Source of the DNA: Nitrosopumilus sp.
GTDB lineage: Archaea > Thermoproteota > Nitrososphaeria > Nitrososphaerales > Nitrosopumilaceae
DNA length: 64,000 bases
Assembly (NCBI GenBank): GCA_963662625.1
Contig: OY759726.1
Location: 1,472,001-1,536,000, forward strand
Reading direction: 5' to 3'
Under the pieces are notes generated by a model. That model saw nothing but the letters and a program-made list of their open reading frames with translations. It ran no database searches and was not told the DNA's origin. Of the stretch, positions 5,901-61,424 are shown in pieces (position 1 is the stretch's first letter; every line of letters begins with the position of its first letter). The translations under genes and the position numbers were made by a program.

Positions 5901-6471
5901 CCCGGAGGTCTCCGACGGGTACGCGCGGTGGTCGCCGCGGAAGAACTCGCTCGAGGAGGAGCGCGACAAGATAGTCAGGTTCATCGAGGGCGTGGACAGG
6001 GAGAAGCGGCAGACGTTCCTGGACGCCTTCGACACGGTCGACAGGGAGGTGCGCCTCGTGTTCGGCAAGATGACCGGCGGCAACGCCTGGATGGAGCTGC
6101 AGAACGAGGACGACATATTCGGCTCGGGGATATCGTACCTGATCCAGTTCCCCAACAAGCCCAAGAGGGAGTCGACCTCGATCAGCGGCGGGGAGAAGAC
6201 GCTGGCGGCCATCGTGTTCGTGCTGGCGCTGCAGAGGCTCAAGCCGTCCCCGTTCTACCTCTTCGACGAGATCGACGCGCACCTGGACGCCCCGAACTCC
6301 GAGCGGCTGGCCAGGATACTCGAGGAGCGATCCCGGGAGAGCCAGTTCATCATGGTGTCGCTCAAGGACTCCGTGGTGAAGAAGGCCGGGCTCATATACG
6401 GGGTGTACCCCAAGAACGGCGTCTCCAACGTCATCGCGTACAAGGACAGGAGGGCCGCCGGCAGGGCGTAG
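2953..6471 (+). CDS. smc: Chromosome segregation ATPase SMC
   Basis: GFKSF, Walker A GPNGSGKSN, long coiled coils with hinge, signature ISGGEK, Walker B/D-loop LFDEIDAHLD. Probable TTG start at 2953. Confidence 0.96.
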   Translation: MVHIKKAEIFGFKSFGFRNTAVQFRPGLVSISGPNGSGKSNILDAIIFAMGENKPKVMRVDRLRSLIHDIEGGRRGPKIARSSVQFDNADRKIPVDSDTVEVTRELDSKGENTYYLNRKKTTRGHVLDLLDMANAGLGQLNAVQQGTVTRISEMTPDEKRSTIETMIGLSYFDEKKSEALEQLDRADRQLQIVLVKMGDMKARIDELEEERNQQLRHDLLGRELARYRAIDTVNRLRALAAEKSGKEAALREAAAGIGRLGGERDSVRAEMEGLDSEKSRIMAEANDYNRAKAEIEMELSGAKDRYESASSEVKASRRRVGQIDARLSEVRSELGEASSRRDGAASRAAEAEGLLEAAAGRKAEAGRGQARADAARQAALDRQSRAAARKAEVDGEVAGLTSQMNEARLALEQARRERRDAGERMASNASRLEGQERAVASLAVYRDRLDAMAANHAASISELKGRIGRLEAKRAKVAGDVEELGALLEKSSRAANQYESRIKTVKGFMHEDYTVARLREDAGRLGILGLAYEMISWDRRHERPVLAASSDWLKAVVVRDFEALLGVAEFARSRKLPKLKIIPLEAMPELAPEAPSGPGVIGALSDYVRCDPAHRALRAFLFGGVVLADSRGSARALSRAGHRAVTPDGEFFEARAGTVVIDINSKISKLTRLISMSTDIDGLFHSIGLIRRYMARKKAHAARLERSIRSASGRLSLSERNLASVAENRSHLESRIASAGRAGGQMRARVGELSARSSELAAEISRRGSQVESIAGRIRAAEEGYAGGEQEGVARELERANSAKLEADRAHTAALREHGEASSRLASLRAEARREGSLARGLAAEESSLSAERAELEGRIRSGEEAMRLGEEEGARLRGREQELIASSGHSMDDIRGYDSRLRELSSRERGLTKELGSLERESDSLGRDLRDMSAQEEGLRKVISASGIGRDAETFDVGPVVEGLSAELGSLPVLNARAPELYPEVSDGYARWSPRKNSLEEERDKIVRFIEGVDREKRQTFLDAFDTVDREVRLVFGKMTGGNAWMELQNEDDIFGSGISYLIQFPNKPKRESTSISGGEKTLAAIVFVLALQRLKPSPFYLFDEIDAHLDAPNSERLARILEERSRESQFIMVSLKDSVVKKAGLIYGVYPKNGVSNVIAYKDRRAAGRA

Positions 6472-6674
6472 GGGGGCCGAAAACCCCGCCCCGCTAGCGG
6501 TGGCGCTGGAACCCGCGGGCGCCCGGCCTGGCCGAGCGCCCCCCAAAGCGTTCCGGAGCCGCGCCCCAGGATCCTCCCGCGTTTTGCCGCGCATGTGCGT
6601 GTCCCGCCAGCACCTGCCCTTTCCACACTGCGGCCCCTGCCGCACCGGTACCTGGCGGGGGCTGGGGGATCCGC

Positions 6675-6786
6675 GTTAGGCACAGCCGATCACCTCGTAG
6701 GATGTGCCGGCCCCTCGGCCCACCGCCGGGCCTCCTCCCGCTGCTCCGGTTAGGCACAGCCGATCACCTCGTAGGATGTGCCGGCC
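6675..6786. repeat. Perfect 38-bp direct repeat pair with 36-bp insert (unit A)
   Basis: GTTAGGCACAGCCGATCACCTCGTAGGATGTGCCGGCC at 6675-6712 and 6749-6786; flanking bases mismatch on both sides; internal GGCACA/TGTGCC stem. Confidence 0.9.
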
Positions 6787-7015
6787 GCACGAAAACCAGT
6801 TCCCGTGCCCTGAGCCACACGTACGCATCTCACGTGCGCGCGCCGGCAATCCGTTACGGGCAGTCCGCATATGACGCGCCGTAGGCATGAAGCGCGGATC
6901 GGCAACACCACACGCTCGCAACAAATCCAAGAAATGCGGCAGTGACGTGACTCAGTATCCGTGACTAAAATCGGATCAGGCGCGGCGCGCCAGACTTACT
7001 GTGTTACTGCATGGG

Positions 7016-7126
7016 GCGGATGCGGGCACCGATGCAGGCCATGCTTGGCAACCTGATTATCTCCGGGAAGGTCGCGCCGACTATGATCGCGGATGCGGGC
7101 ACCGATGCAGGCCATGCTTGGCAACC
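7016..7126. repeat. Perfect 38-bp direct repeat pair with 35-bp insert (unit B)
   Basis: GCGGATGCGGGCACCGATGCAGGCCATGCTTGGCAACC at 7016-7053 and 7089-7126. Confidence 0.9.
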
Positions 7127-7174
7127 GGGCGGACAAGGCAGCCAAGACGGTCCAATGTTCAACGCCGTTACTGC

Positions 7175-7252
7175 GTCCCACGCCAACCTGGACGTCATGG
7201 GGCACACCGGCAGGAAGCCCTTGGCGCCCAGGAACTTTTGAGCGTTGCTATA
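7175..7252 (+). mobile_element. 3' end fragment of an unclassified IS (copy 1 of 3)
   Basis: Encodes ...HANLDVMGHTGRKPLAPRNF* followed by GCGTTGCTATA; homologous ends at 26666-26760 (minus) and 42125-42205 (plus). Confidence 0.65.
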
Positions 7253-7397
7253 CTGAGTCTGGCTGCCCTTGCTTTTCTTGATCGGTAAAGCGCAAGGCAA
7301 TCCTTTGCAAGCCTCCTCAAGCTCGTGTGACCTAATTTATGTACGGGCCCACAGCACAATTCATAAATATAAAACGGGGATACGGAAAATGGAGGCC

Positions 7398-7607
7398 ATG
7401 GATACAAGAAAGTTCACCCTGCAGGTAATCAAGTCGCCAGAGGGTGGATTCACCGGACGTTGCCTGGAACTGCCTGCGGCCATCAGTGAAGGGGACACGC
7501 TGGAGGAATTGGAGTCCAATATGAAAGAGGTCATCCAACTGGTTCTGGAATCGATTGAGGAGCAAGTGAAACCAGATCAAAAGAAGGTCATAGAGATTCC
7601 AAATTGA
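7398..7607 (+). CDS. hicB: HicB-family antitoxin
   Basis: EGGFTGRCLELPAAISEGDTLEELESNMKEVIQL is the HicB core; overlaps hicA by 4 nt. Start could be 7389. Confidence 0.88.
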   Translation: MDTRKFTLQVIKSPEGGFTGRCLELPAAISEGDTLEELESNMKEVIQLVLESIEEQVKPDQKKVIEIPN

Positions 7608-7819
7608 GCCTCAGGAACCACAATTGGCTTGATGTGGTCAAGGCAATGAGCAAGCTTGGGTATGCTGTCATCAGGCAACGGGGAAGCCACATGATTTTGG
7701 CAAGCAATAGCGGCAACATAGTTCCTGTCCCGAGGCATTCTCCAATACGGGAATCAACTCTGAGACTGATTTTGGAGCAGGCCAAAATCGCCAAAAGCGA
7801 CTCTCTAAAGAACGTCTGA
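7604..7819 (+). CDS. hicA: HicA-family mRNA interferase toxin
   Basis: LGYAVIRQRGSHMIL...VPVPRH...TLRLILEQA consensus. Confidence 0.9.
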   Translation: MSLRNHNWLDVVKAMSKLGYAVIRQRGSHMILASNSGNIVPVPRHSPIRESTLRLILEQAKIAKSDSLKNV

Positions 7820-7864
7820 TTCTGGATCAAGCTGGCTCTGTGGGAGCATACGGGACGTAGTGTT

Positions 7865-8190
7865 CACATTAGATAATCGCCCGTCTTGGCGGCCTGATCT
7901 CCCCCGTGCATGGCATCGTCCCTGCTGGTTCCTTCATCTCGCCGGCCGGCCCGCACGGCCCGTTGGCGGCGCGCAGCCCCGTGTTGCGCCACTGTCCCCC
8001 TGCCGGGCCGGGGTCTGGCGCGTGGGCGGGAAAGTGCCCGGGCACGGCGTCCCCGCCGTGGCCCCTGGCGGCTCCCGTCACCTTGCGCGGCTTGCGGCAG
8101 CCCGCGTTGTCCGCAGGGACGGGCGCCTTCCCGGACTCCCTGCGGAGCCTGCCGGGAAAGTCCGCGAGGCTGCCCCCGTTCGCCCTCTCG
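7865..8190 (-). pseudogene. Degenerate IS630-family transposase C-terminal fragment
   Basis: PGHFPAHAPDPGPAGGQWRN resembles a decayed LPPYSPELNPIE.W motif; similar to 9110-9190 in opposite orientation. Confidence 0.5.
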
Positions 8191-8192
8191 CA

Positions 8193-9326
8193 TAGTCAAC
8201 GCCTTATTAAACCGTTCAAACCATTGTGACAGCATTGCCTGGCCGAAAGATCCAGGCCGTGCGCGTGCCGACTGTCACCATGGAAAGAAAAAACATGCTG
8301 AAAAAGGGGCCGGCGTTCCTTCCCGGCACCGGCATGCCGTACCTGAAGGCATGCCACGGGAAGGAGGAATGCCCCAAGGCCCGCGAGAGGCTGCTGGCGT
8401 GCATGGCGGGGAAGGAGGGGCCCGCGGCGCGCCAGGCAGCGCCGGGGCCGGACCGCAGGCCCGCCGCCATGGGGGACTGGCCCGCGGGGGCCGGCCGGGG
8501 CGGCCCGCGGGAGGGGCGCGACGGCCGCAAGGAGGGGAGGCCGCGCAGGCCCGGCGGGCCCCAGGCCAGGGGGCCGGCAGCCGGCATGGAAAGGGGCCCC
8601 GGGGAATTAGGCTCCGGGCCCCCGCTGCGGGCCCCCAGGACGGTGCTGGCCCGCGCCGGGAGGGGTTCGGCGCGGGGTACGGGACAGGCGGCGCGCAGAA
8701 GCTCCCGGCCAGGATCGGCATGTCGCGGGAGAAGGCGGGGCCAAGCCGCCCCAAACCGGCCCCGAAAGGGGCGCAAGGCGGGTCCAAAAAAAGGCGGCGC
8801 GGCTGGCCCGCGGGTACGGCAGGCCAGGGCACGCCGCCCCCGCGGGGGACGGGGCCGCCGCCGCACCGGGCGGCAACAGGGCGCGCTGCGGCCGGCACGG
8901 GAGGGGGAAGGGGAAGGCCGCCCCCGTCACGCCCTCAGGGGACAGGAAGCGCGCGTTCGGCGTCCCCGGGGACGGGGAATCCTGCCGCATGTCCCGCGGC
9001 CAGAAGGATCCCGGCGTGTCCATGAGGTTCCCGGGCAGGGTCCGCGGGAGGTCCGGCAAGGTGCCCGTGTCCGCAGGCAACGCGCCGCGGCGCAAGCCCG
9101 GGGCGGTGCTGCGCCACGCGGGGGGCGCGGGGGCGTCCGGCCGGGGCACTTTCCCCCGCACGCCCCGGAGCCTGGCGGCACCAGGGTGCGGCGGGGGGTG
9201 ACGGGGAACCCCGTGGGCAACAGCCCGTGCGCTGACACCGGGGAGGCCGTGGGGCCCATGCGCGCCATGATCCGCAAGAGGGAGATCGTTCCGGTCAAAA
9301 TGAACGATTACTTAAGGCGTTGACTA
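8193..9326 (+). mobile_element. Degenerate IS630-family element with terminal inverted repeats
   Basis: TIRs TAGTCAACGCCTTA..AA.CGTTCA (8193) and TGAACG.TT..TAAGGCGTTGACTA (to 9326), TA at both ends; decayed HTH KARERLLAC...ARQAA and GHFPPHAPEP. Confidence 0.75.
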
Positions 9327-9700
9327 CGTACCTGGGTATCAGGTGGTAGTCCAGGGCCACGACGCAGCGGATCCGCCTGAGGATCCCCGGCCGCCTGGCA
9401 TCCCGCACGGTGGCGGCGAGGGCGCCGGAGCACCGCTCCCGCATGGCGTCCTGGCCGCCGCGCACCCCCCGTATCCTGGAGAGCACCCACGCCGACGACG
9501 GTACGCGGCGGGGCCCGTGGCGCACGGCGAGCGCCCCGGCGGCGCCCGACGCGCACGAGCGGTCCCTGCACATGGACACCAGCACGCGCACGGAGCCGGC
9601 CGTGCCGCACGCGGCGTTGTGCCGTCCCGAGAACCCGATGCCCGCCTTCCCAAGCAGCCGTGGCAACGTTTTAAACGCCTTGCCCACCACCTCAAGCCGG
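9327..9700 (-). pseudogene. ISH3/IS4-like transposase N-terminal remnant, cut by the IS630 insertion
   Basis: VRVLVSMC...PSSAWVLSRIR...VVALDYHLIPRY (catalytic-D motif resembling ISH3 'AIDxHxIPYY') stops exactly at the IS630 TIR. Confidence 0.55.
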
Positions 9701-9868
9701 TGCCCCCGTGGTTCGTTTTGGTGGTACACGATGGATGACAGGGGCGCCTGATCAATTGGCTTTTCTGTCCAAAACGTTCCAGTATCGGGCCAGGACATGC
9801 TGGCCGGCGTCCTGCTGGGGCACATTTCGATCTACTGGGCCAGGGGATCGTGCCTAGTTGTGCAACAA

Positions 9869-9979
9869 GCTAGCCCAACCGATACCGCTTTATTCCCTCG
9901 CGGCAGCATGTTTCTCGCGTTCCAAGTGCCTTGAGTCAACGGCTAGCCCAACCGATACCGCTTTATTCCCTCGCGGCAG
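9869..9979. repeat. Perfect 38-bp direct repeat pair with 35-bp insert (unit C), containing a TATA-like box
   Basis: GCTAGCCCAACCGATACCGCTTTATTCCCTCGCGGCAG at 9869-9906 and 9942-9979. Confidence 0.9.
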
Positions 9980-9990
9980 AGCATCCGCGT

Positions 9991-11154
9991 ATGGCGCCCT
10001 GTCTTGCCTACAAGCCCTGGCAGTCGGTCGACCCGGCCAGGCGCTACTGCCTGGTCGACACGATGGTGCTGCTCCAGCTGTACCGCCGCGACCGGACGCT
10101 GGCTGCCATGGCCGAGGCCGTCCTCGACGGCCGGGCGCTGCTGGTGGTCCCCAGCGTGGTCGGCGAGTGCTACAACGTGTTCAACGCCAACAAGCCGGGC
10201 GCGGGGGGGCCCGGGCCGCCCGGCGGGAAGGGCGGCCCCCGCGAGCTCGCCGCCGTGCGGGCCACGCGCGAGGACCTGGAGGTGGAGCCTGGATCGCGCG
10301 ACGGGTTCGACTGCCTCCTGGTGGACTGCCTGAGCGCGTGGGGGGCGGCGTTCGCGGCCGTCGAGCCGGGCGCGGGCACGCTGGCAGCCGCCAGGCGGAT
10401 GAAGAAGAGCGCGAGGTACGGGCCCCTCTCGCCCACGGACTGCCTCCTGCTGAGGCTGGCCGTCGAGAACCCCAACGTGGACGTCCTCACGGACGACAAG
10501 GACCTGGCCAGGGCCATCGCCTCCGAGTGCGGCCGGGGCAGGGCGTCCAACGTGTTCAACGACTACTTTGGCAGGCTGAACATGACGGCCCGCTTCCTCA
10601 GCATGGTCTCCGGGCTGGGCTTCGTGGACTGCAGGCCCGCCCGGGACAGGATAGAGTACTATGCCGACGACATGAGCGAGGACGAGACCGGCGCCCTGCG
10701 CCGCGACAGGCCCGGGCCCCACTCCCCGCCGGACAGGCGCCCGCCCCTGCTCCTCGCGGTGCGGTGCCTGCCGGGGCGCACGCGGGCCGAGGACGACGCG
10801 GTGCTCCGCCGCCTGAAGCCCGGCTCCGCGCCGGGCATAACGCGCGCGCTGCTGGACTTTGTCGACATGGTGGTGCTGGACTGGTACTGCGCGTGCGGCG
10901 ACCCGAACCTGGTCGCCTTTGACGGCAAGTGGGCCAGGGCCCCGCGCGGCACTGGCGCCGACGCGAGGCCGGCCCCGGACGCGCGCCGGGCCGGGCGGAG
11001 GCGGGCCCGGGCCGGGCGGGGGGGCCGCAGGCCGTACTATGACGCCGCCAGGGGCCTGCTGAGGGAGAAGCGCAACAGCCACTGCGCGTGCGCCAGGCCC
11101 GACGAGCGCCGCCTGCACGAGGCGTTCCGGGACATAGTGTCGGAGCCCCGGTGA
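9991..11154 (+). CDS. PIN-domain protein with uncharacterised Cys-containing C-terminal half
   Basis: LVDTMVLL, VVPSVVGE, LSPTDCLLL, VLTDDKDL give the PIN acidic tetrad; TTTAT about 25-30 nt upstream of ATG 9991. Confidence 0.75.
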   Translation: MAPCLAYKPWQSVDPARRYCLVDTMVLLQLYRRDRTLAAMAEAVLDGRALLVVPSVVGECYNVFNANKPGAGGPGPPGGKGGPRELAAVRATREDLEVEPGSRDGFDCLLVDCLSAWGAAFAAVEPGAGTLAAARRMKKSARYGPLSPTDCLLLRLAVENPNVDVLTDDKDLARAIASECGRGRASNVFNDYFGRLNMTARFLSMVSGLGFVDCRPARDRIEYYADDMSEDETGALRRDRPGPHSPPDRRPPLLLAVRCLPGRTRAEDDAVLRRLKPGSAPGITRALLDFVDMVVLDWYCACGDPNLVAFDGKWARAPRGTGADARPAPDARRAGRRRARAGRGGRRPYYDAARGLLREKRNSHCACARPDERRLHEAFRDIVSEPR

Positions 11155-39665: not shown

Positions 39666-40889
39666 TCACTTGAGCCCACCGGCCTCGACCCACTCGTCTG
39701 GTGTCAGCACGTGTACGCGTAACTCCTCCAATATCTGGTCGCGGATCAGGAGAAAGTCCGCGTCCTCGGTCATCAGGATCTTGGTCTTGCTATTGTCCCT
39801 GAGCTTGGGATGTGACGCCTTGGCGAGTATCGCCTTGTCTATCGTCAGATCGAACATGCAGACCTCCCAGGTGTATTCTTGCCGTACGCCGCCTCCATCC
39901 ACATTCTTATGGTGCTTCTGCTTGACATGCTTCCTCCAGGTCTCGTCACGGAGGAACGCGTTCCGAAGTAAGGCCGCCACCTCGTCCTTTCGCTTCTCCA
40001 TCCCGTTGCTGTCGCCCACCGTACGGGAATCCGCCCCACTTCCCGGAACCAGCCTGCGCGCCTTCTTCACGCACTTGCTCGCAGTCTTCTCGCTACCGTT
40101 GATCCCCAATACCACCCCACGCAACTCTTCAAGCGTGTTGCTTGCCACATACAACCTCCCGCTTTCCGAGAGGGACTCGACGATCTCCTTAATCCTGGGG
40201 CTTGGCGGATCATCGCCGGGCTTGGGCGCGATTTCCCCTATCGCCACCATGTAATTCACCATCACGTTGGTGTCCGGCATCACGATACATCCCTCCGGGT
40301 CTATCTTCGGGGGCCACCGGAGTTCCTCGTCTGCGGGGACTGCCGACTCCCGGGGACCCCCGCCCACGATCTTTTCTGGGCTCGGCGCGCCGGTGGGGGC
40401 CACGGCGGGCCGGGCAGGCCGCTCCTGCGTATGGGGGGCACGGTGTGACTTTGGGGTTTGTCCGGGTTCTGCAGCCACCGGCTTCTGGCATGCCTGACTT
40501 TTGATCGCGCCTTCTGGGTTTGTGACGGCAGGTTGAGATCCCTGCTTGCGGGTGGCAGCTGGTTTCTTTCCTTCGATCAGGCCATCCAACACGCGCATGA
40601 GATCGGATCTCTGCTCGGAGTTGATCGGCATTAGGTTCAGCTTGTACCCCGTCTTGGTTATGAGAAGGAGCTTTTTACCCGCCAAGGTGTCCCACACGCG
40701 CATTTTTTCATAGGGTTCTGCCCTCTTACCATATGAGCGCATGTGGTTTGCTATGACGGCTTGGGGCCTCTCTTTTGGATACGATTCCAGCAGCGCTTTA
40801 ACCGCTAACAGTCCTGGGGATCCCGTCACCATCGTTTGAATAATGTCCCTAAACACTTCAAACGCAAGGGACTCTTCCAGCCCTTCCAC
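39666..40889 (-). CDS. Protein with unknown N-terminal domain, Pro/Ala-rich linker and C-terminal PIN domain
   Basis: VMPDTNVMV, VASNTLEE, DKAILA, LMTEDADF. Confidence 0.7.
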   Translation of the reverse strand: MEGLEESLAFEVFRDIIQTMVTGSPGLLAVKALLESYPKERPQAVIANHMRSYGKRAEPYEKMRVWDTLAGKKLLLITKTGYKLNLMPINSEQRSDLMRVLDGLIEGKKPAATRKQGSQPAVTNPEGAIKSQACQKPVAAEPGQTPKSHRAPHTQERPARPAVAPTGAPSPEKIVGGGPRESAVPADEELRWPPKIDPEGCIVMPDTNVMVNYMVAIGEIAPKPGDDPPSPRIKEIVESLSESGRLYVASNTLEELRGVVLGINGSEKTASKCVKKARRLVPGSGADSRTVGDSNGMEKRKDEVAALLRNAFLRDETWRKHVKQKHHKNVDGGGVRQEYTWEVCMFDLTIDKAILAKASHPKLRDNSKTKILMTEDADFLLIRDQILEELRVHVLTPDEWVEAGGLK

Positions 40890-49900: not shown

Positions 49901-50887
49901 TTGGAGAGTAAAATGCATATGAAAAAGGAAACCATGGATATGTCTGACGCTGAACGAGGGATATCGGATATTGCCTCATCCGAAGGCGATTTATCTGATT
50001 TCACAGCAATCTGCAGGTTGATTTGTAATAATCGCGCAATCTCAAAAGACAGACTTTTCAAAATCATCAAGAATTCCATTATAAACAAATCAGACGCCGT
50101 GATTGAGCGAAAATTAAACATTATGTGCAAATTAGACCTGTTAGATTTGGCCAACCAAAAATTTGTACTCCGCGCTAATGGTAAAATATTGGTTGAAATA
50201 AGCAACAAACAATCTGTTTTTTCAGAAAAAATAGAAAAGGCATTTTATTTTATAATATTATTCAGTTCGAAAGCAAGACTGCAACTCACCTCGCTCCTTC
50301 AATCTATAAACGAACAAAATGGAGACGATAAAAGGGAAAACATTGCAAGATATTTTAAAGCAAATATAGTCCAGGAGATATGGAATAAAAAAACAATCGA
50401 AAAGAATCTTACCGCTTTAGAAACAACACAAAGATTGCCAAGCATGCTTAACAATAAATTTTCTTGCATGGAAAAATGGTTAGAGTTTATTGATCTAATA
50501 GAAATAAGAAAAAATGGCCTGCACGCAAATTTGACTTCGGGGCTGATTAGCTCGCTGCTAAACCCAGAAAACAAGAAAAACATATTTGGCGAAGCCGCAA
50601 CAAAGTATTACACCGAATCCAAAGAATTCCGCATTAAGCAGCACTATCGAGATTTGTGTACGTATTTTCTTGAGGGCCATGGTAAATTCCTCACCCCTGC
50701 CGGAATCAGTGACGCCGAAGCAGTAGCAAAATTCGTGTGCTTGCAATTACTCAAATCAAACATAATCTTGGAAGAGAACGGTTTTTTCAAACTGACCAAG
50801 AAATTAAAAAAAGACAAAATCCTTCGCTCAGTAATGATGGGCAGGGACGGCACGCCTAAGAATTTCGGCGTGGATTACTATACCTGA
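49901..50887 (+). CDS. Hypothetical AT-rich protein, possibly tandem winged helices; convergent partner of the TGT operon
   Basis: 328-aa ORF; LDLL...FVLRANG and WLEFIDLI segments resemble wHTH wings; overlaps the next gene's 3' end by 32 nt. Start may be 49913 or 49919. Confidence 0.7.
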   Translation: MESKMHMKKETMDMSDAERGISDIASSEGDLSDFTAICRLICNNRAISKDRLFKIIKNSIINKSDAVIERKLNIMCKLDLLDLANQKFVLRANGKILVEISNKQSVFSEKIEKAFYFIILFSSKARLQLTSLLQSINEQNGDDKRENIARYFKANIVQEIWNKKTIEKNLTALETTQRLPSMLNNKFSCMEKWLEFIDLIEIRKNGLHANLTSGLISSLLNPENKKNIFGEAATKYYTESKEFRIKQHYRDLCTYFLEGHGKFLTPAGISDAEAVAKFVCLQLLKSNIILEENGFFKLTKKLKKDKILRSVMMGRDGTPKNFGVDYYT

Positions 50888-51971
50888 GAATGTTTTTGTT
50901 CCTAGCGACAAATTCCGAATTAATATGATCGAGATCTTTTTCAGCCGCCTCCCGCACCAGCCGTCCACAGTTGGGGAGAAGAAACCCCGGATAGTGGTAT
51001 TCGGGGCCCATCAGCCCGAATAATCCGTCTAAGGCATCATCACAAAAGGGAAGCAGTTTGTCTCTCTGCGTGTCTGATTCCCCCAAATAAAGACTGTGGT
51101 GAACACGCAAAAACTCTGAAACATGCTCAGCGCCAAGACTGTCAAGCGGCACCAAGTAATCAAATCTTCTTGAGAGCTGCTCGGAAAACCCGATGTCATA
51201 CCACTCGTCTTCTTTCTCAGCTGTAAATGATGCGATTAGCGCAAAATTTTCTGAAAAATCGTCCAGGAGGGCTCTTAAACTGTCGCCTATGGCGTTGCTA
51301 ATTCTGATTGGAGTGTTTTCTAATTCGTCAATGACCAGTACTACCGGCCCAAAATTTTTGCAAAGGTGGGCGATTAGCTCCTTTAGCATCGTTAGTCTTT
51401 TGTAATCGCCGTCTAAGGCATAAGTAATGTCCAATTTGTCAAGCTCTGAGACTGAAAGGCGCTCGCCGAACAACCATTTTTTTGCAAGTTCGGGTTCCCT
51501 CAAATTAGTGCTAATCATATAGAGGGCTTTTGCCAATTCGGTGTTTGGAATTAACTTCTCCCAATTCGCGGTAGAGCCGTTACCATATTTTGCCTTAATA
51601 AAATCTGCTATATTTTTAAGGTTGTTTTTCATGAAATATGAAATGGCTTCCCTATACATTACTGAAAAAGATGGTTCTACTGCAGGGATCAGCGTGTAGA
51701 TAAAAATGATGTTCTGGGAACCGTGCGAGCGTCTGACTAGCTCCTTGCTGATGATTTTCGTAAGCCAGGTTTTGCCGCTGCCTGTCTGGCCAAAAATTCT
51801 CATTCCCACGCGAGCCCCCCCCGAAACATCCTCCAAAAACTGATCCAATTTTTTCCTTGCGTCCGCCAAGTCCGGCCTATCCCACTCGAGAAATTTTTCA
51901 TCAATCTTGTAAGGGTTGGTTGATTCGTAGGGATTTTGAACAAAATGGTACTTTTCAAAATATCTGGACAT
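50856..51971 (-). CDS. AAA+/P-loop ATPase (BrxD/Orc-like)
   Basis: N-terminal NPY, Walker A GQTGSGKT, Walker B LVIDELE, LSRRF arginine finger. Confidence 0.85.
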   Translation of the reverse strand: MSRYFEKYHFVQNPYESTNPYKIDEKFLEWDRPDLADARKKLDQFLEDVSGGARVGMRIFGQTGSGKTWLTKIISKELVRRSHGSQNIIFIYTLIPAVEPSFSVMYREAISYFMKNNLKNIADFIKAKYGNGSTANWEKLIPNTELAKALYMISTNLREPELAKKWLFGERLSVSELDKLDITYALDGDYKRLTMLKELIAHLCKNFGPVVLVIDELENTPIRISNAIGDSLRALLDDFSENFALIASFTAEKEDEWYDIGFSEQLSRRFDYLVPLDSLGAEHVSEFLRVHHSLYLGESDTQRDKLLPFCDDALDGLFGLMGPEYHYPGFLLPNCGRLVREAAEKDLDHINSEFVARNKNILRYSNPRRNS

Positions 51972-52004
51972 GATTTTACTGATCTCGTATTTTGTACCCT
52001 TGTC

Positions 52005-52475
52005 TTATACTTTTCCTTGTATTTCGCTAATGTATTTCTGGGCATTTGAGATGAGATCGCACCGCTCGTTTTCTATGAATATCCCCGCCTCTTTATTTTC
52101 GTGAATCGCGGTATTACTAATGTTTAAGCTTGAAACTAAAAGGCTGTCAGTAGCGCCTGTTAGCAAAACCATCTTTGCGTGTACTGATCTTCTAAACATA
52201 ATGGTCACTCCTAGGTTTTCAATCAAGTCAGAAACAAATTCCTGCTCAGTAGGATCATTTTTGAGCGTTCTTTTGTTTATTATGATTATGACCTTTACCT
52301 GACTGCGGATCAACTGCTCCAATTTTTTACGAAATGGCACTCCGTTAATTGTGGCGTTGTGAATGTGCTGGCTAACGATTTTAAGTTGCTTCAGGCCCCT
52401 CCTTGCGGTTATCATTTGGTTTAGGCGAAATTCTAGGGAATGGCCGGAAACAAATTCTATCACCATGCATCTCAC
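52005..52475 (-). CDS. Phospholipase D-family (Nuc/DpdK-like) single-domain nuclease
   Basis: VHAKMVL...SSLNIS...NKEAGI (HxK, SxN, E); the HKD aspartate is replaced. Confidence 0.8.
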   Translation of the reverse strand: MRCMVIEFVSGHSLEFRLNQMITARRGLKQLKIVSQHIHNATINGVPFRKKLEQLIRSQVKVIIIINKRTLKNDPTEQEFVSDLIENLGVTIMFRRSVHAKMVLLTGATDSLLVSSLNISNTAIHENKEAGIFIENERCDLISNAQKYISEIQGKV

Positions 52476-52498
52476 CCTGTATTTTTTATCCCACGATC

Positions 52499-53527
52499 TT
52501 ACTGCCTCATGTTTTTTAAGGATTTAAACAGGCTTGCAAAATTCGTTTTTCCCATGATTCTTTCAACGTATTCGTCGTAGCGGTTCTCGTGAATTAGCTT
52601 TCTTGCCTTCTTTAGCTCCTGCTGGTGAGTCCAAGCGTTGTGAATCGCCCTGGCGTAAAAATCATCCTCCAGCCCCTTCATACCATGGCGCCTGCACATG
52701 GGGCACCTGCAGTTTTCCAGCTTTTTCCCCTCTTCTTTAGAAAGCCGCGGGTATAGTTTTTTTCTTGCCACCTTTGAAACCCACCTGTCGCCCATCCCGG
52801 GCATCTGGATTGCGCCAAACGCCGCCTTTGTCCTCCAGGCAGAACTGTCAAGGGAGTCTGCGCCAGCATAGTACATCAAGTGCATCGTGAGCGTGCCGCC
52901 TGTGCCAAAAACGTGCAGTTTTGCCCTAGGAATTTGCTTTCGAACCTCCAAGATCACCTTCATTACGTTGAGGATCCCGCCCACCCCCTTGACGTTATAC
53001 ATGGCAGGAACCAGGCTGCCAATGCCGTAAATTGGGAACCTGTCGATTTTTTTCAGCCTTTTCACATAATCCCGAATTTCTCCTGCGTCATAACCATGAA
53101 TAACCGGCACCAGAACGGGATTTTTTGTAACTTTGTTTTTTAGCATGATCCTTGTATTTTGTAGCGTTTTTGATTTCCGCCTTTCGTTTTCTTCTTTAGG
53201 TAGGGTGGGAAACAGGGGATGGTCCAAAACCACGCCAAAATTTGGTTTAGCCCTTTCGTAGAAACCAATAATTTCTTCTGCAGAAACATCCATGTGTTTT
53301 CTTTTCATGAATAAAAACCCGCCAGAATCCATCATGATCGGACCACGAAATCCCAAAAAGCCATGAATTTTTTCCTCTTGCGCTGTTTTGAATGCGTGTG
53401 GGTGCTGCATAAAGTCATGCGCATTCATTAAAACACCACCCACTCTGAAATAATTCCAAGGCGCGCTCTTTTTATCTGCGACCATTTGGCTAAACCACAG
53501 CATCGGGTATTCTATTTTGTGTTTCAT
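52499..53527 (-). CDS. tRNA-guanine transglycosylase-fold protein lacking PUA (DpdA-like base-exchange enzyme)
   Basis: MDSGGF, VLDHP, PVIHG, GIGSLVP, HVFG, ADSLDSSAW nucleophile motif, Zn site CRCPMC...HN; 342 aa. Confidence 0.9.
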   Translation of the reverse strand: MKHKIEYPMLWFSQMVADKKSAPWNYFRVGGVLMNAHDFMQHPHAFKTAQEEKIHGFLGFRGPIMMDSGGFLFMKRKHMDVSAEEIIGFYERAKPNFGVVLDHPLFPTLPKEENERRKSKTLQNTRIMLKNKVTKNPVLVPVIHGYDAGEIRDYVKRLKKIDRFPIYGIGSLVPAMYNVKGVGGILNVMKVILEVRKQIPRAKLHVFGTGGTLTMHLMYYAGADSLDSSAWRTKAAFGAIQMPGMGDRWVSKVARKKLYPRLSKEEGKKLENCRCPMCRRHGMKGLEDDFYARAIHNAWTHQQELKKARKLIHENRYDEYVERIMGKTNFASLFKSLKNMRQ

Positions 53528-54258
53528 GTCGTCTTTATCTGCCTAAGAAGCGATTTGAGCACCTTTGGGTGGGCCACACCGTACATGTCCCATGCAAATG
53601 TACCGCGCTCGTTGACCAGGTTTTTAATTTGATTTTTTGTTGGTAATATTTCTATGTCTAAATGATATCTCCGAGATGCTAATTCCAACATTCTCCTATG
53701 AGTATGATCGTCTTTTTGATCCAAAGCAGAAGAGTACGTTCTCACACACGCGATTATTTTTTTGTATTCTTGTCCTACTCTTTTTAGTGTCTTTCCAACA
53801 TTGTCAGAAATAATCTCAATGCTTCTATCCAAGTATTCTTTATCGTACTCTTGCTTGTATCGACGGCACCACCATTCAAAAAGCCCTGGGCAATCATACC
53901 ATTCGAACCCAGAAAAATACTGGTCTGGTACTAACCCGAAAGGCTCTGAAATAGTCATCACCTGAATTTGCTCTCTTTTTCCATTAAGCCTATCTAGATA
54001 TTGGTACAGCTGTTGGTATGAGCGTGATCTGTTGTATGGCTTAACTGTAGAGCATGGATAAATCAGCAAAACGTCTTTTCTTTCTGGGACATACGTTTTG
54101 GCCATGAAATTATGCCATTTTTTGATATCCGGGTTGGACGCTAGTCCTTTGTAGACCTCTTCTGGCGAATAGAAGCACAGGGACTTCTTAATTTTGACAC
54201 CTTTGCCAACTCTGGAAGAAACTGTTCGGTATAGTTCTAACTTTGACATTTCCACCAC
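53524..54258 (-). CDS. Stand-alone DUF5591 (archaeosine synthase ArcS-type) domain protein
   Basis: LLIYPCSTVKPYNRSRSY, TISEPFGLVP, YDCPG match the ArcS 'LPCS..KPYS.S.SH / SP.G.VP / YD.P' motifs; 4-nt overlap with the TGT gene. Confidence 0.8.
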   Translation of the reverse strand: MVEMSKLELYRTVSSRVGKGVKIKKSLCFYSPEEVYKGLASNPDIKKWHNFMAKTYVPERKDVLLIYPCSTVKPYNRSRSYQQLYQYLDRLNGKREQIQVMTISEPFGLVPDQYFSGFEWYDCPGLFEWWCRRYKQEYDKEYLDRSIEIISDNVGKTLKRVGQEYKKIIACVRTYSSALDQKDDHTHRRMLELASRRYHLDIEILPTKNQIKNLVNERGTFAWDMYGVAHPKVLKSLLRQIKTT

Positions 54259-54279
54259 GGTTCAATGTGTACGGGGGTT

Positions 54280-57200
54280 CTAGCCATGATCTTCCACCTC
54301 GTCCGAATTCAAGGCAATGCCTAACTTGACAAAGCCTTTCTCATACAATATTTGAACAGATTTTGTAACGGCAGGATCAAATAAATTATTGCCAACTTTG
54401 TTTAGTCCCGGTTCTAGCTTTCCCGGATCCACGTAATCCTTTCCAGATGATACGTCCGAAACGAGTTGTAATAAACCGGCAGATCCTCTGTCGATATCTA
54501 ATTCTTGGATAATTTTTTTCATGAAAACATCTCTCCGCCTATTTAATTCATTGACCATTTTAATCCATGTCATTTTATTCATCCTTTGTAAATGGTCTTT
54601 TAATTTACTTGAAAATTTTTCGAAATCCATTCTTGATTCTATCAAGACAACTTGCTTTGATTCAGGTAAATTTTTTGAACAGATATTTACAAAATTAACG
54701 AGTGTTTTTGTTTTCGCTTCGACAGCTTCGATAAATTTTTTAATAATTTCATGCAACGCTATATTGATCTGCTCTATTTGCTCACTCAAATCCTTCATGT
54801 TAGAATTAATCTCTGTCACGCATTTAACAAATATCACAATTTCTGATAAAGACGTTGGCAGTTCTAAATATTCTTTATTGGCAGAATTCAAAGATTTTTT
54901 CATATCATTAATTTTCTTTTGGATTGCCACAGTGTTGATCGTTGAGTCTGACACATCTTCAGAACCCACTATAAAGTCACTTAAATCCTCTAAACATTTT
55001 TTACATTCCTCATAATGCTTAAGGAAAGTGCATTCATGCTGATCCACTTCTTTTATTTTCTCTAATATTTCGCCCCTGCGTTGATTAAAAGCTGCTAGTT
55101 TTTGGCTAACAGTAGAAAAATACTCTTCAATTTGTTTTAAATCCTTTATTTTTGTGGTTTTTGGAAGTGCCGGTGGTTTGATTTGGGTAGCTGACTTGTG
55201 TAGGCCGCTGGAAATTTTATGTGCACTCGGAAAAACAAAAGTTGCGGTTGCAGCCTTAATTTCTCGGTAGGATTCCTTGATACTTTGTGCAAGGCTATTG
55301 GTTTTGTCAGTTGTGCGCTTCATCGCGTCAAGTTCAGCATCAAAACATTCTACAGCCTTTTTTAGATTATGATAGGGTAAGCTAAAGTAATATGCATCGT
55401 CAGCACTTTTCTCAAAATAAAAGGCGGATTTTTTATGATCTTTTTTAGAGTCTTTCATCCCTATAGATTGAGTTTCTTCTGTGACGAGTCTTCGTTCGTA
55501 AGTTTTTTCATATTCGCTCTGAACTAAATCGACAAATTTCTTTTGGATGCTCTCCAAAATAATTTCAGAAGTGATATGTTGTTCTTTATTGGATACTAGC
55601 TTGTTAAATGTTAAAATAATTTCATCTATTTGATGTTTATAGCTTTCAAATTTAGACATGGTATCCTTGAATAATTTGGCTTTTTGGTTATTTGCCTCGG
55701 TAATTATTGGACGAACATTTTCTTGATAATAATCGTAAATTGCAATTATTAATTTGGAAAGACGAAGCTCTTCGTCACCGTCTGAATCATTTTTTTTATC
55801 AAGTAATCCTTGTAAAACATGAATGTAATCTGATTCACTTATTACCCTACATTCTCTCATTTTTGTTTGCGAAATAAAGTGACCGTTTGAATTATCTTGA
55901 GGATATGATTCATTCATGTATTTTTCAACAGCATTAATTTTTGGTTGAAATACTGCATCGCCCTTCTTTATTATGGCGTAAGTGTTATTGGTTTTTCTAA
56001 TTTTTCCCTTCTGGATCAATGTGTTTAGATAATAATTCTGCAATGCTCCCTCGGCGTTAGACTGGTTTACGAATTCCTGTTCCAGTCCAGCCTGTGAATT
56101 TTTATTTTTTCCTAGTAATCGAATAACCCTTTTTTCTACAGGTGTGTCAACTGACATGATTACGGAGTTAATGTCCTTTAAAAATTGGTTGTTAGTTAAT
56201 CCATATGCCCAAGATTTCCATTCGTCTTTAGTTTCAATATCTATCGGGCAAAATGATCCTTTACTACCAAATAACTTGATTGATTTTAATTTTTTATAAA
56301 ACTCCCATTGCTCATCGATTGGAAAATTGGATGTACTTATAAAAGAAGAGATCGCTTCTCTGATACTGCTCTTACTGTAATCTCCCAATTCTTTGAGTAA
56401 CGGAATTATGATTCCGGAAGCTTCCGCCTTTGGAATCCAAAAATTTTCAATGCGTTGCTTCAGCTTTAATTCATTTATTATTGCAGAAATGCGGGATTTT
56501 TCAGTGATGCGATTAATTTGGATTTTTTCCACTTTTGCACGTTTCCAACAAAGTAACTGCTCGACATTAATTCTGTCTATTGGAATTCGCTGAATCTCAC
56601 CCACACCCTCCAGTAATTCATGAACGGGTTTTTCCAAATGTGTTTGGTAGAATAACAAAGTCAGAACTGCAGGAGTGGCATCAACAAGCTTTCTAATTTT
56701 ATCAATTTTTTCTACAGAAATATTCTCGATGATTCCTTCAATTATAATGGGAATTGGATTGTCCCGTTCATTTAACTTTAAAAGAAAATACTCCTCCTGC
56801 GGCTCACAATTAATATCTGAAAGTTTTATCGCATCAATTAGTGCGTACTTGAGATCATGATGAATCTTATCACGGTTTTTCACATCCCCCAAATCCCTTT
56901 GGATTTTTCTTCTTAACTCTAGCCGTTTACTTCTGTCTTTAATAAAATCAAATTTAATTAAGTTTGGAGATGGAAAGACGTTTTCTAGAAGATTTACTGA
57001 AACACGGTAAAATCTATTCGAGGTATCGAAATTATTTTTCACGGAATGATAGAATTTTCCAGCAATGGTACTATCAATACCTAACAATCTAGATAATTCG
57101 TGTGGGTCTTTTGGAATTACAATCTCTTTATCAAAATAATTCTTTGATAAATTACTGCTTATAACATAGTTTGTAAATGATTCTTTTAATGTAGCGATCA

Positions 57201-58542
57201 GGATAGAATTATAGTCAACAGTTATGTACTGATTCTTGCCTTGTTCGATTTTTGTATAGTTTGATAAAATTGAATCGAAATCCCGCCCTTCTTTCAATTT
57301 ATAATATACCCCAAAAGCAGAATCAAGTTTGTTTTGGTTTTGAAGATTTTCATTAATTTGATTAACCAAATTGCTGATATCTTTTTTAGGAATACTTAAT
57401 CTTTCAGAAATTTCATCGATGGAAAAGGCCTTGTTTTCTCCTGTTAGCAATTCAAAGATTTTAATTAATTTTTCCGAATTTCTCCTTGAATTACTTAATG
57501 ACTTTCTGAAACCATCTAGCATGTTAGCTTCAATTGCGGACGTGGATGATCCATAAACGGAAACTTTGACATCATTTAATTCTTTAAACAGCTGTGTGTA
57601 ATCAATGCAGCATATCGTGGTTTTATCATAAGGGATCGCCTTGCTCATTAGCTTGTAGAGCAGCTGGATTAATGCCCTGGGGTTTCTTTGAGAAATATTT
57701 ACAATAGTTTCAAAAATCCCGGCACTAGCAATTGGCAACTTTTCTAATTTTCCAGCATAGCTAACTTTTACTAGCTCAGATAAAAAGTGGTAGCAATCAA
57801 ATCTCGAGAGGAGAGGTAATTCAATCAAATTGTAGGCGAGTCTTTGTTCAGTGCTCCCCATTACTTGAGAAAAATTAGGATCTTCAGTAATCGTATTCCA
57901 TGCATACGGCGTACACGCAACAAAGATGTGCAACCTTCCCTCGTATTTACCTCCTTCAGATAATGATCCAAATTTTTTGTTGATGACTTCTTTAATTCCT
58001 GAAATCACATCAGCTTTAATATCCTCATTGTAGAGAATTTCTTCAAACTCATCTAAAAATAAATACATTTTTTTTTGATTATTTTCAAACAATTCTGCAA
58101 GTTTTTCATTCAGATATCTTACTGGATCTTTTATCATATCTTTGTAAAACAGTCCTTTATCTCCCTCCTGAGAATATAGATCGTCACCCACTGCAGTTAA
58201 TAATGCTGTTAAAAAATTGGTGGCGGTGTTTGAATGATGCGTATAGCTTTCATTCCTACGTAATTTCTTTGCCAGTGTACTGGTAGATACCGAATAGCAA
58301 TAGTGATGTTTTAGAACCGTTGAGATATAGCGATCAAATGCATCAGTCTTACCTTCCCCCCATTCTGCTTTAATCAGACATATCTGGATGTTCTTATCAT
58401 TACGAGTTTTTTCAATAAAGCCGTCGATTAAATTCGCGACTGATTCGCGCCCAGGAATCTTTGCATTTTTAACTCCTTGGAAAGGAACGCCTTTGGGGTC
58501 TGGTAGATTTCTGAGATCGAAAACTGGTGCAGTGCTAACCAT
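54280..58542 (-). CDS. Large (~1420 aa) P-loop ATPase with HTH and long coiled-coil C-terminus (BrxC/DpdH/SspC-like layout)
   Basis: Walker A AEWGEGKT, Walker B LFLDEFEE, NPRALI sensor, FSIDEISERLSI HTH. ATG at 58542, or GTG at 58554. Confidence 0.8.
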   Translation of the reverse strand: MVSTAPVFDLRNLPDPKGVPFQGVKNAKIPGRESVANLIDGFIEKTRNDKNIQICLIKAEWGEGKTDAFDRYISTVLKHHYCYSVSTSTLAKKLRRNESYTHHSNTATNFLTALLTAVGDDLYSQEGDKGLFYKDMIKDPVRYLNEKLAELFENNQKKMYLFLDEFEEILYNEDIKADVISGIKEVINKKFGSLSEGGKYEGRLHIFVACTPYAWNTITEDPNFSQVMGSTEQRLAYNLIELPLLSRFDCYHFLSELVKVSYAGKLEKLPIASAGIFETIVNISQRNPRALIQLLYKLMSKAIPYDKTTICCIDYTQLFKELNDVKVSVYGSSTSAIEANMLDGFRKSLSNSRRNSEKLIKIFELLTGENKAFSIDEISERLSIPKKDISNLVNQINENLQNQNKLDSAFGVYYKLKEGRDFDSILSNYTKIEQGKNQYITVDYNSILIATLKESFTNYVISSNLSKNYFDKEIVIPKDPHELSRLLGIDSTIAGKFYHSVKNNFDTSNRFYRVSVNLLENVFPSPNLIKFDFIKDRSKRLELRRKIQRDLGDVKNRDKIHHDLKYALIDAIKLSDINCEPQEEYFLLKLNERDNPIPIIIEGIIENISVEKIDKIRKLVDATPAVLTLLFYQTHLEKPVHELLEGVGEIQRIPIDRINVEQLLCWKRAKVEKIQINRITEKSRISAIINELKLKQRIENFWIPKAEASGIIIPLLKELGDYSKSSIREAISSFISTSNFPIDEQWEFYKKLKSIKLFGSKGSFCPIDIETKDEWKSWAYGLTNNQFLKDINSVIMSVDTPVEKRVIRLLGKNKNSQAGLEQEFVNQSNAEGALQNYYLNTLIQKGKIRKTNNTYAIIKKGDAVFQPKINAVEKYMNESYPQDNSNGHFISQTKMRECRVISESDYIHVLQGLLDKKNDSDGDEELRLSKLIIAIYDYYQENVRPIITEANNQKAKLFKDTMSKFESYKHQIDEIILTFNKLVSNKEQHITSEIILESIQKKFVDLVQSEYEKTYERRLVTEETQSIGMKDSKKDHKKSAFYFEKSADDAYYFSLPYHNLKKAVECFDAELDAMKRTTDKTNSLAQSIKESYREIKAATATFVFPSAHKISSGLHKSATQIKPPALPKTTKIKDLKQIEEYFSTVSQKLAAFNQRRGEILEKIKEVDQHECTFLKHYEECKKCLEDLSDFIVGSEDVSDSTINTVAIQKKINDMKKSLNSANKEYLELPTSLSEIVIFVKCVTEINSNMKDLSEQIEQINIALHEIIKKFIEAVEAKTKTLVNFVNICSKNLPESKQVVLIESRMDFEKFSSKLKDHLQRMNKMTWIKMVNELNRRRDVFMKKIIQELDIDRGSAGLLQLVSDVSSGKDYVDPGKLEPGLNKVGNNLFDPAVTKSVQILYEKGFVKLGIALNSDEVEDHG

Positions 58543-58543
58543 C

Positions 58544-60220: not shown

Positions 60221-61389
60221 CAATGAACATCTCCCATCATTTTCATTTGAATTATGTTTTCCACATCTTCATTACTCTTAGAACCGGTAATAAATTCCCT
60301 AAATAATATGTCTGCCGCTCCTTGTCCAATATTGCACTTTTCATGTGCTAAAATCACAGGAATAGGGATGTGTCTTCCGGGTGCAGCCCACCTAACGATA
60401 GATTTGATTGCTTCGATTACTAAATCATTTTTAACAAATTTTTTGCTTGGAGACAACGCAATATCTACACGAATAGGGCTGGAGACATAGCCATTTGCCA
60501 TCAGAAATGTTAAAACATCCACACCATTGTTCTGATATTCATTTGCGGCTTTTTTACCAATTTCGCCAGTTTTTCCTTTAGAGTTAATCTCTGAAAGTAA
60601 AATTGGTTCAGTGTAAGCAAGACAGTCTTTATCATTTTTTAGATACTCTGTAAAAATATGTACTGCTAAATTTTTATCTGAAAGCATATTTTCAAATTCA
60701 ACTGATTCGCTTAAAGGAAAAAATGATTTGTAATGGTTGGAGAATAATGTTCCGCTAATTCTTTTTACGATTCCAATTAACTGTGCTCCTCTCGAAAAAC
60801 CCTGTTTGATCGCAAATGTCCTTCCTTCAACGTATTGTTTTTGATTTTCGAACGGAGGATCAATAATTGGACCATCAAGAAAAATAATTCCATCGCTTTC
60901 TTTTTTCCTAGACATCGCCGTAACCTTTAACGCTTCTGTTTCCATATCCATCATGAATTTTTCCGCCGCAGCGCCTGCGCCTTTCTCGTCAATTTGATTT
61001 ATTGTTCGAATTGCTGGAGTTACTAGAACATCAACGTCAGAATCATAACCTTGGGGATACCTTATTCTTGCGACGCTGTAAAAAATCATCCACCCGCCAT
61101 CTGGTCTGGGGTATTTTTGCAGACTTCCATCTACGGCATCTGTAAGCGTTTTGGCATATTCAGAAAGATCTGTTTTTGTCAAATCCATTTTATGAATAAT
61201 GCTTTTCGAAACCATTAGTGAGAGAGCTTTCTTAGCACTTTTGCGATATTCTTTGGCAGATTGCTTCATTGCCTCGGATTGTTTTGATGTTTCCTCAACA
61301 AATTTTACCATGGCTTCTGCAGGAAGCTTGTTGAAGCTAAGCATGTTGAGTTCTCTACGAAGCTGTTCTTCTTTGTATAAATCAGGCAT
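60220..61389 (-). CDS. nurA: NurA-family 5'-3' nuclease
   Basis: AVDGS, IFLDGPI, GIVKR, RVD, PIPVILAHEKC; stop overlaps the herA start. Confidence 0.88.
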   Translation of the reverse strand: MPDLYKEEQLRRELNMLSFNKLPAEAMVKFVEETSKQSEAMKQSAKEYRKSAKKALSLMVSKSIIHKMDLTKTDLSEYAKTLTDAVDGSLQKYPRPDGGWMIFYSVARIRYPQGYDSDVDVLVTPAIRTINQIDEKGAGAAAEKFMMDMETEALKVTAMSRKKESDGIIFLDGPIIDPPFENQKQYVEGRTFAIKQGFSRGAQLIGIVKRISGTLFSNHYKSFFPLSESVEFENMLSDKNLAVHIFTEYLKNDKDCLAYTEPILLSEINSKGKTGEIGKKAANEYQNNGVDVLTFLMANGYVSSPIRVDIALSPSKKFVKNDLVIEAIKSIVRWAAPGRHIPIPVILAHEKCNIGQGAADILFREFITGSKSNEDVENIIQMKMMGDVH

Positions 61390-61410
61390 AAATATAGGAT
61401 GATCTTGCTA

Positions 61411-61424
61411 TGTTTATAATATTT
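61411..61424 (-). promoter_or_regulatory. Putative archaeal TATA box of the nurA-led operon (leaderless)
   Basis: AAAATATTATAAAC on the minus strand, with TTATAAA 24-30 nt upstream of the nurA ATG. Confidence 0.5.

Follow-up and report, generated by a model that had tools for sequence, protein, structure and literature searches.

Casposases, which are homologues of Cas1, generate target duplications of 14-15 bp, and over-expression of the type I-E Cas1-Cas2 of Escherichia coli is said to have led, in work by Nivala, Shipman and Church of 2018, to off-target integration that creates 'neo-CRISPR' repeat-spacer-repeat units (CRISPR, short palindromic repeats that are clustered and regularly interspaced). 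Here we describe solitary units of this form in the genome of Nitrosopumilus sp., a single contig of 1,858,698 bp with 63.4% G+C, three of which lie in the stretch of 64,000 nucleotides that was analysed as a whole (G000:C1:1,472,001-1,536,000, hereafter the window). The units are insertions with target duplication, and they are very probably the scars of off-target spacer integration by the organism's own type I-G Cas4/Cas1 fusion together with Cas2.

Casposons resemble this situation in that a Cas1-family integrase makes a target-site duplication, but they are kilobase-sized, carry terminal inverted repeats and produce a short duplication, whereas the inserts described here are 31-38 bp long and all different, and the sole cas1 of the genome is the CRISPR one. 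The E. coli neo-CRISPR units, as far as the passages considered here describe them, are closer: they too consist of a spacer-length insert between repeat-length duplications of ordinary DNA, depend on the presence of the adaptation module and can seed new repeat-spacer-repeat units. The differences are that the events in this genome are natural and not driven by over-expression, that they would involve an archaeal type I-G Cas4/Cas1 fusion with a probable 36-bp stagger, that they occupy 27 loci in one 1.86-Mb genome and recur in the sampled parts of the genomes of three other species, that donors and empty sites could both be identified in the same genome, and that the junctions show an excess of microhomology. 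In the available part of a preprint that cites the E. coli work (10.1101/148544), the natural evidence of Nivala et al. is described as circumstantial and concerns two other species. The type I-G (formerly I-U) Cas4/1-Cas2 of Geobacter sulfurreducens, which recognises TTN as protospacer adjacent motif (PAM), likewise combines a Cas4/Cas1 fusion with Cas2 and acquires spacers that are predominantly 36 bp long (Almendros et al. 2019, PMC6547450); in the passages considered from that study, integration was measured into the array, spacers came mostly from a plasmid and chromosomal off-target products go unmentioned. In Pyrococcus furiosus, OriC, transposons and CRISPR loci are hotspots for the uptake of self spacers (Shiimori et al. 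2017, PMC5737086). According to the portion of that paper considered, most captured DNA is self, with origin-proximal DNA and mobile or multi-copy elements favoured, as in the present genome; there, however, the spacers enter arrays and are transient in cultures, while here they are fixed outside the array and would thereby escape autoimmunity.

Solitary units in the window and across the chromosome

The three pairs that the initial annotation had singled out as possible footprints of ectopic spacer integration are indeed exact 38-bp direct repeats with periods of 74, 73 and 73 bp and inserts of 36, 35 and 35 bp, and the duplicated 38-bp sequences of the three units are mutually unrelated. Their parts are listed below in window coordinates (no strand is assigned to any of them), together with a window sequence that matches the insert of a unit elsewhere in the genome (ORF, open reading frame).

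6675..6712: unit 1, first target copy, 38 bp exact
6713..6748: unit 1, 36-bp spacer-sized insert, donor not found
6749..6786: unit 1, second target copy; Logan contigs break 30 nt into each copy
7016..7053: unit 2, first target copy, 38 bp exact, inside a multi-copy non-coding element
7054..7088: unit 2, 35-bp insert, a copy of genome 502680-502707
7089..7126: unit 2, second target copy, 38 bp exact
9869..9906: unit 3, first target copy, 38 bp exact, 22 nt past the end of a multi-copy element (window 9327-9846)
9907..9941: unit 3, 35-bp insert, donor not found
9942..9979: unit 3, second target copy, overlapping an uncertain 5' extension of a PIN-domain ORF
40149..40181: donor (protospacer) for the insert of the unit at genome 1,638,825, inside a 407-aa ORF

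All three units had been described as intergenic, which is correct for unit 1 (crude gene calls) and holds for units 2 and 3 only with overlaps of doubtful ORFs: the only ORF that unit 2 touches is a weak one of 76 aa without a Pfam match, and in unit 3 it is the second repeat that overlaps the PIN-domain ORF, in the uncertain extension from a TTG start. Logan contigs (k = 31) from three runs of one study cover this region, and in two of these runs, X1 and X2, contig ends fall exactly 30 nt inside the 38-bp repeats, at 6704, 6757, 7045, 7097 and 9950 (the last being the start of a contig of both runs inside the second copy of unit 3). Contigs are expected to branch in this way if both repeat contexts are present in the reads, and the duplications are therefore real. 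Since k is smaller than 38 bp, these contigs cannot separate filled from empty alleles, and none of those listed spans a unit; one of the three runs may be the sample behind the genome assembly.

The chromosome was scanned at every period from 45 to 139 for repeats of 28-46 nt (at least 27 of 28 matches) whose insert was not itself repeated and whose core had at most two nearby copies, with the CRISPR array excluded. As the initial annotation had anticipated, the scan gave a sharp genome-wide peak, with 27 solitary pairs at periods 70-74 versus five at the other 90 periods, an excess far above chance, several of these five resembling protein-coding repeats. The curated list used below holds 28 pairs at 27 loci: it adds an older, mismatched pair at 506,436 and counts both pairs of a three-repeat locus (463,591/463,664), and the candidate at 1,083,394 was dropped as a tandem duplication because its period-73 identity continues for at least 80 nt. 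Throughout this list the repeats are host sequences that show no relation from one unit to another. The units are spread over the whole chromosome, and a special local mechanism is consequently not needed for the three events of the window. Tandem duplication or slippage was rejected as the origin of the units, the identity of the insert to the next or previous period being only 0.14-0.45 in all 27 kept units, and the footprint of a transposon, miniature inverted-repeat transposable element or insertion sequence was rejected as well, all 28 inserts differing from each other. Unrelated marine metagenome loci, fetched for another purpose and totalling 927,058 bases, gave 0 units with the same filter. 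The genome is rich in repeat proteins with periods of 75 nt (25 aa, DUF285/BspA-like) and 204 nt (68 aa), and these two families dominate the other periods in repeat scans.

The peak of unit periods at 70-74 coincides with the period of the only CRISPR array of the genome (1,683,977-1,693,742), which comprises 135 identical 36-nt repeats and 134 spacers of 34-40 nt and has periods of 70-76, most commonly 72-73. The mean unit period (72.0) is slightly shorter than that of the array (72.6; Mann-Whitney P = 0.04). The window was correctly noted to lack cas1: the sole cas1 lies about 158 kb past the window end (genome 1,694,231-1,695,190) and is an intact type I-G Cas4g/Cas1g fusion, with an open frame of 561 aa, no stops and a score of 727 bits against a cut-off of 560. 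A cas2 gene is also present and adjoins both the fusion gene and the array, and the type I-G effector genes for Cas7g, Csb2, Cas3g and Cas8g1/Csx17 are found on the other side of the array. The leader is probably located at the high-coordinate end, to judge by the repeat orientation, by where cas2 lies and by a degenerate remnant of a repeat at the opposite, low-coordinate end. Beyond an IS481-like transposase gene a second Cas7g-Csb2-Cas3g set lies in tandem with the first (genome 1,664,001-1,684,000), the two effector sets being separated by a nucleotidyltransferase-like ORF and the IS481-family transposase gene. Four spacer pairs of the array overlap or resemble each other (sp30/sp129, sp49/sp102, sp69/sp96 and sp78/sp105), as expected from repeated sampling of one target, and C is the first base of about half of the array spacers (+ strand). 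The whole array gave no megablast match against 50,697 phage records.

When the repeats were compared with each other and with the true CRISPR repeat, the unit repeats did not form one family, and only the locus at 463,591 shares a core with the CRISPR repeat. This mini-array (genome 463,591-463,770) has three 36-nt repeats and two inserts, and its repeats have in common with the true repeat the 11-nt core ATGGGGCCG..AA. Either a second spacer was added here to an ectopic unit, or the locus is what remains of a decayed array.

Donors, empty sites and target choice

Protospacers, for which the initial annotation had suggested searching, were found for 11 of the 28 inserts, all of them elsewhere in the same chromosome. 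Six donors match without mismatch, four with 1-2 mismatches and one more weakly (32/36). Ten of the eleven matches, counted with any identical bases that follow in the adjoining repeat, are 35-39 nt long, which is the size of the array spacers (34-40 nt). Hundreds of kb separate the donors from the units; donors occur on both strands, most of them in ordinary genes, and one is a multi-copy element. The insert of unit 2 matches 502680-502707 at 28/28 positions, inside a 242-aa ORF, and the match becomes about 35/37 if the comparison is carried on past two mismatches and over 2 nt of the repeat. The donor in the window (40149..40181) matches the insert of its unit exactly (33/33) and extends to 39 nt.

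Self matches were far more frequent among the inserts (11/28) than among the array spacers (2/134, counting full-length perfect matches only; Fisher P = 4e-8). Self-derived spacers have presumably been purged from the array by autoimmunity and would be harmless in units that make no working guide. The positions of 12 donor sites (the donors of ten single-copy inserts and those of the two self-matching array spacers) were compared with that of a region carrying cdc6/orc1 and two PolD genes, which is probably a replication origin. Three of the 12 lie within 6 kb around these genes (P = 0.007; one of the three is the site of an array spacer) and six within 90 kb (P = 0.001). GC skew gave no clean origin or terminus in the genome, whose PolD, Cdc6 and FttA proteins confirm its archaeal identity.

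Empty single-copy sites were found in paralogous copies for six of the 28 units, namely those at 395,288, 396,382, 457,709, 1,020,047, 1,479,016 (unit 2 of the window) and 1,578,421. Each of these has 2-17 paralogs that hold one copy of the duplicated sequence and no insert, and in the alignments the filled copy appears as a clean extra block of 70-74 nt relative to the empty paralogs. For unit 2 the empty sites are in paralogs at genome 690120-690276 (-) and 1061823-1061979. A search for empty sites in relatives, in which 41 genomes were compared with window 6000-10500, returned matches almost only to the SMC coding stretch (65-80% identity); beyond SMC the relatives gave a few short fragments, and the rest of the region matched only copies in its own genome. 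A metagenome scan with SMC recovered only relatives of 55-59% identity. For units 1 and 3 no match was found in five related genomes, their inserts had no donor elsewhere in their own genome, and the centres of these inserts (30 and 29 nt, respectively) had 0 exact matches in viral_contigs.

Most units avoid genes: although crude gene calls take up 82% of the genome, 19 of the 28 units fall outside them (P = 7e-9). By the same calls, an ORF is split by frameshift in two of the six units with empty sites, and one other unit adds 72 nt in frame to the gene of a DUF285 repeat protein. The duplicated segments begin with G in 17/28 cases (P = 0.001) and end with C in 16/28 (P = 0.005). The pentamer CCGAT, which the initial annotation had noticed in all three window repeats and which starts there at positions 12, 14 and 11 (units 1, 2 and 3), did not turn out to be a general recognition motif, being confined to these three among the 28 units; CCG at positions 11-15 occurs in 13/28 versus 8 expected (P = 0.03, post hoc test). 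A preference for hairpins or palindromes was rejected, since the folding energy of the targets is not different from that of GC-matched controls (Wilcoxon P = 0.87 and 0.49).

Relatives, junctions and alternative explanations

The closest homologues of the Cas4/1 fusion come from metagenome-assembled genomes of Nitrosopumilus, Nitrosopumilaceae, Thaumarchaeota and Cenarchaeum (56-75% identity), followed by Caldilineaceae and Dehalococcoidia. Parts of the genomes of relatives were sampled with the filter of the genome-wide scan:

G002 (same genus, 42% G+C): Cas4/1 742 bits; same-family 36-nt repeat; 460 kb sampled; 4 units, periods 72-75
G041: Cas4/1 754 bits; 400 kb sampled; 8 units, two of them copies of one dispersed 228-bp repeat
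G042: Cas4/1 750 bits; 400 kb sampled; 6 units
G016: Cas4/1 725 bits, 63% identity; same repeat family; first 400 kb sampled; 0 units
G019: Cas4/1 712 bits; 95 kb sampled; 0 units, too little to judge

Altogether, 18 of the 22 hits in G002, G041 and G042, the relatives whose Cas4/1 is closest, have periods of 70-75. The 36-nt repeat of G002 was read beside its cas genes, and one unit insert of this genome matches three other loci in it; the same repeat family is found beside cas in the G041 and G042 loci, with periods of 73-76. In G041 a dispersed repeat of about 228 bp (C1:37,377-37,604 and 243,192-243,419, 94% identical) holds a complete repeat-insert-repeat unit, so that here the ectopic unit has itself been copied along with the dispersed repeat.

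Insertion with target duplication, donors in the same chromosome, a geometry that matches the array, a single intact cas1 accompanied by cas2 and recurrence in relatives are established here. Ectopic spacer integration, as originally proposed for the window, is thus supported by the period peak, its match to the array, the cas1 gene, the protospacers, the empty sites and the contigs. The reaction would be catalysed by Cas4/1-Cas2 and can be pictured as follows. The module would capture fragments of about 35-39 bp, many of them from its own chromosome and with a bias towards the cdc6/orc1 region, the likely origin, and towards multi-copy elements. Now and then ordinary DNA would be attacked in place of the leader-repeat junction, and a pair of strand transfers, staggered by about 36 bp, would after filling of the gaps leave the target duplicated on both sides of the fragment, the product being a 'repeat'-insert-'repeat' with a period of 70-74. 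Lacking a leader and differing from the cognate repeat, the duplicated sequences probably do not allow their inserts to be turned into working guides, and self-derived inserts would then be harmless there. Selection would remove hits in essential genes, leaving survivors in intergenic DNA, in repeated elements and in two already redundant ORFs, and the surviving units are presumably neutral.

Several observations weigh against this reading. Apparent duplications of 37-38 bp are found more often than duplications of 36 bp. Donor identity continues past the insert into the duplication for 20 nt over 22 junctions, versus 8.1 expected (P = 0.002), and this excess, which lies mostly on one side of a unit, is not predicted by a plain transesterification model and is left unexplained by it. 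The lengths of duplication and insert compensate each other (r = -0.86), which would also fit a process of fixed total length. A TTN-compatible flank, i.e. the PAM of the G. sulfurreducens system, is present in only 4/11 donors; in the part of the Geobacter study considered (PMC6547450) about 50% of the unique spacers had such a flank. The four donors nevertheless exceed the 1.3 expected (P = 0.03) and lend the CRISPR reading weak support, and neither of the two self-matching array spacers has a TTN flank, which is uninformative because such spacers would be tolerated in an array only without a working PAM. No units were found in the first 400 kb of G016 (P = 0.003 at the density of the present genome) despite its related, if more distant, Cas4/1, and all relatives scanned carry Cas4/1, so that the link between units and integrase is a correlation. 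Finally, no donor and no empty site was found for units 1 and 3 of the window, which are therefore assigned from their geometry and from the evidence of the other units; off-target integration is somewhat less certain for these two taken alone.

A staggered cut of 36 bp, the repeat length, is the simplest reading of duplications that look longer, the 38 bp of the three window units included. With terminal mismatches allowed, the apparent duplications are 36-39 bp long in 22/28 units, the CRISPR repeat being 36 nt, and the shorter ones reach about 36 bp with one terminal mismatch allowed. Period minus 36 gives inserts of 34-38 nt, versus apparent inserts of 31-38 bp. The simplest account of the length compensation is that the boundaries are ambiguous: extra identical bases at the junctions of a stagger of probably exactly 36 bp would produce apparent duplications of 37-39 bp, and the lengths would compensate because donor identity runs into the duplication mostly on one side. 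At sites that lack ruler motifs, the second strand transfer or its stabilisation may be aided if the spacer end can pair with the target over a few bases.

One rival is templated insertion, in which replication or repair without Cas1, by microhomology-mediated template switching or break repair, would copy a short piece of DNA from another place and re-copy part of the target. The excess of junction microhomology, the compensation of lengths and the fact that the inserts copy the genome's own DNA all suit such a process; it should yield broad lengths from nearby templates, however, and the periods are confined to a range of 5 nt (70-74) that is the period of the array, the donors are hundreds of kb distant and found on both strands, three of ten well-matched donor junction pairs have no microhomology at all, and the same scan gave nothing in 927 kb of control loci and 400 kb of G016. 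We consider templated insertion very unlikely. Very unlikely, too, is a non-CRISPR insertion process that adds a constant total of about 72 nt, made up of a short genomic copy and a compensating target duplication. It would account directly for the correlation between the two lengths (r = -0.86) and for their sum being less variable (standard deviation 1.2) than the duplications and inserts taken separately (standard deviations 2.1 and 2.4), but ambiguous boundaries of a fixed 36-bp duplication extended by chance matches give the same pattern, the apparent duplications begin at 36 bp if mismatches at their ends are tolerated, the total is that of one repeat and one spacer of this very genome, the inserts are ordinary gene fragments and not hairpins, and an intact cas1 is present. 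To our knowledge, no enzyme other than Cas1 is a candidate for such insertions.

Two further possibilities carry less weight still. Mini-CRISPR arrays with a function, or repeat-spacer-repeat units with a regulatory role, whose acquisition or evolution served some purpose, would share the form of the units, and the three repeats at 463,591-463,770 even have a core like that of the true repeat. The repeats are all different, however, and consist of host sequence with empty-site paralogs, hairpins are not enriched, no Rfam family was found at gathering scores in the window region of the three units (nor in the array), and many inserts match the host's own genes, which makes a function of this kind highly improbable. 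The chance that the units are assembly artefacts is negligible: although the genome is probably a metagenome assembly, the branch points of the X1 and X2 contigs coincide exactly with the repeats, the copies have diverged in some units, and units of the same kind occur in four separate assemblies.

Surrounding elements and significance

Families of multi-copy elements of 1-1.5 kb, 84-97% identical (genome 394,000-402,800 and 456,500-459,500 plus paralogs), are frequent landing sites of ectopic units; their ORFs have no Pfam match, and the families may represent uncatalogued mobile elements. Within the window, positions 8193-9327 form a multi-copy element that is 93-94% identical to genome 1,606,500-1,611,694, and the adjoining element at 9327-9846 recurs, with 88-90% identity, in at least five further places; the ORFs of both are likewise without Pfam match. 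Positions 50000-62000 of the window form an island of low G+C content (34-43% in a 63% genome) that encodes defence-like genes, including TGT/DUF5591 (DpdA-like), HerA-like and NurA-like proteins, an AAA_15/AAA_21 ATPase and a 1424-aa protein with a weak, sub-threshold match to STAND NTPases, and it is probably a foreign defence island.

The literature consulted yielded no account of solitary units occurring genome-wide in Nitrosopumilaceae or for type I-G systems; supplements of the cited papers may list natural cases. The kind of event is thus known, and this genome is a new and unusually rich natural case in which donors and empty sites can both be read. Off-target integration has so far been demonstrated mainly in E. 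coli with over-expressed Cas1-Cas2, and its natural frequency and consequences are open questions. In genomes such as this one, the intrinsic target choice of the integrase and its ruler can be read from the genome alone. The proportion of self among ectopic inserts (11/28) as compared with array spacers (2/134) fits heavy sampling of self DNA combined with autoimmune purging from arrays. The units can also inform the debate on the origin of new CRISPR arrays. CRISPR finders tend to discard one-spacer 'arrays'; in lineages of this kind, such arrays may be real products of the integrase.

It is conceivable, if on balance doubtful, that the Nitrosopumilaceae Cas4/1-Cas2 lineage is habitually promiscuous, that some of its units grow into arrays, at which the three-repeat locus hints, and that pairing of a few bases between spacer end and target positions the second strand transfer. 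If so, the spacer-sized samples scattered over the chromosome would be a record of naive adaptation in uncultured archaea that has not been filtered by autoimmunity, and a second strand transfer positioned by pairing would be an undescribed variant of the integration mechanism.

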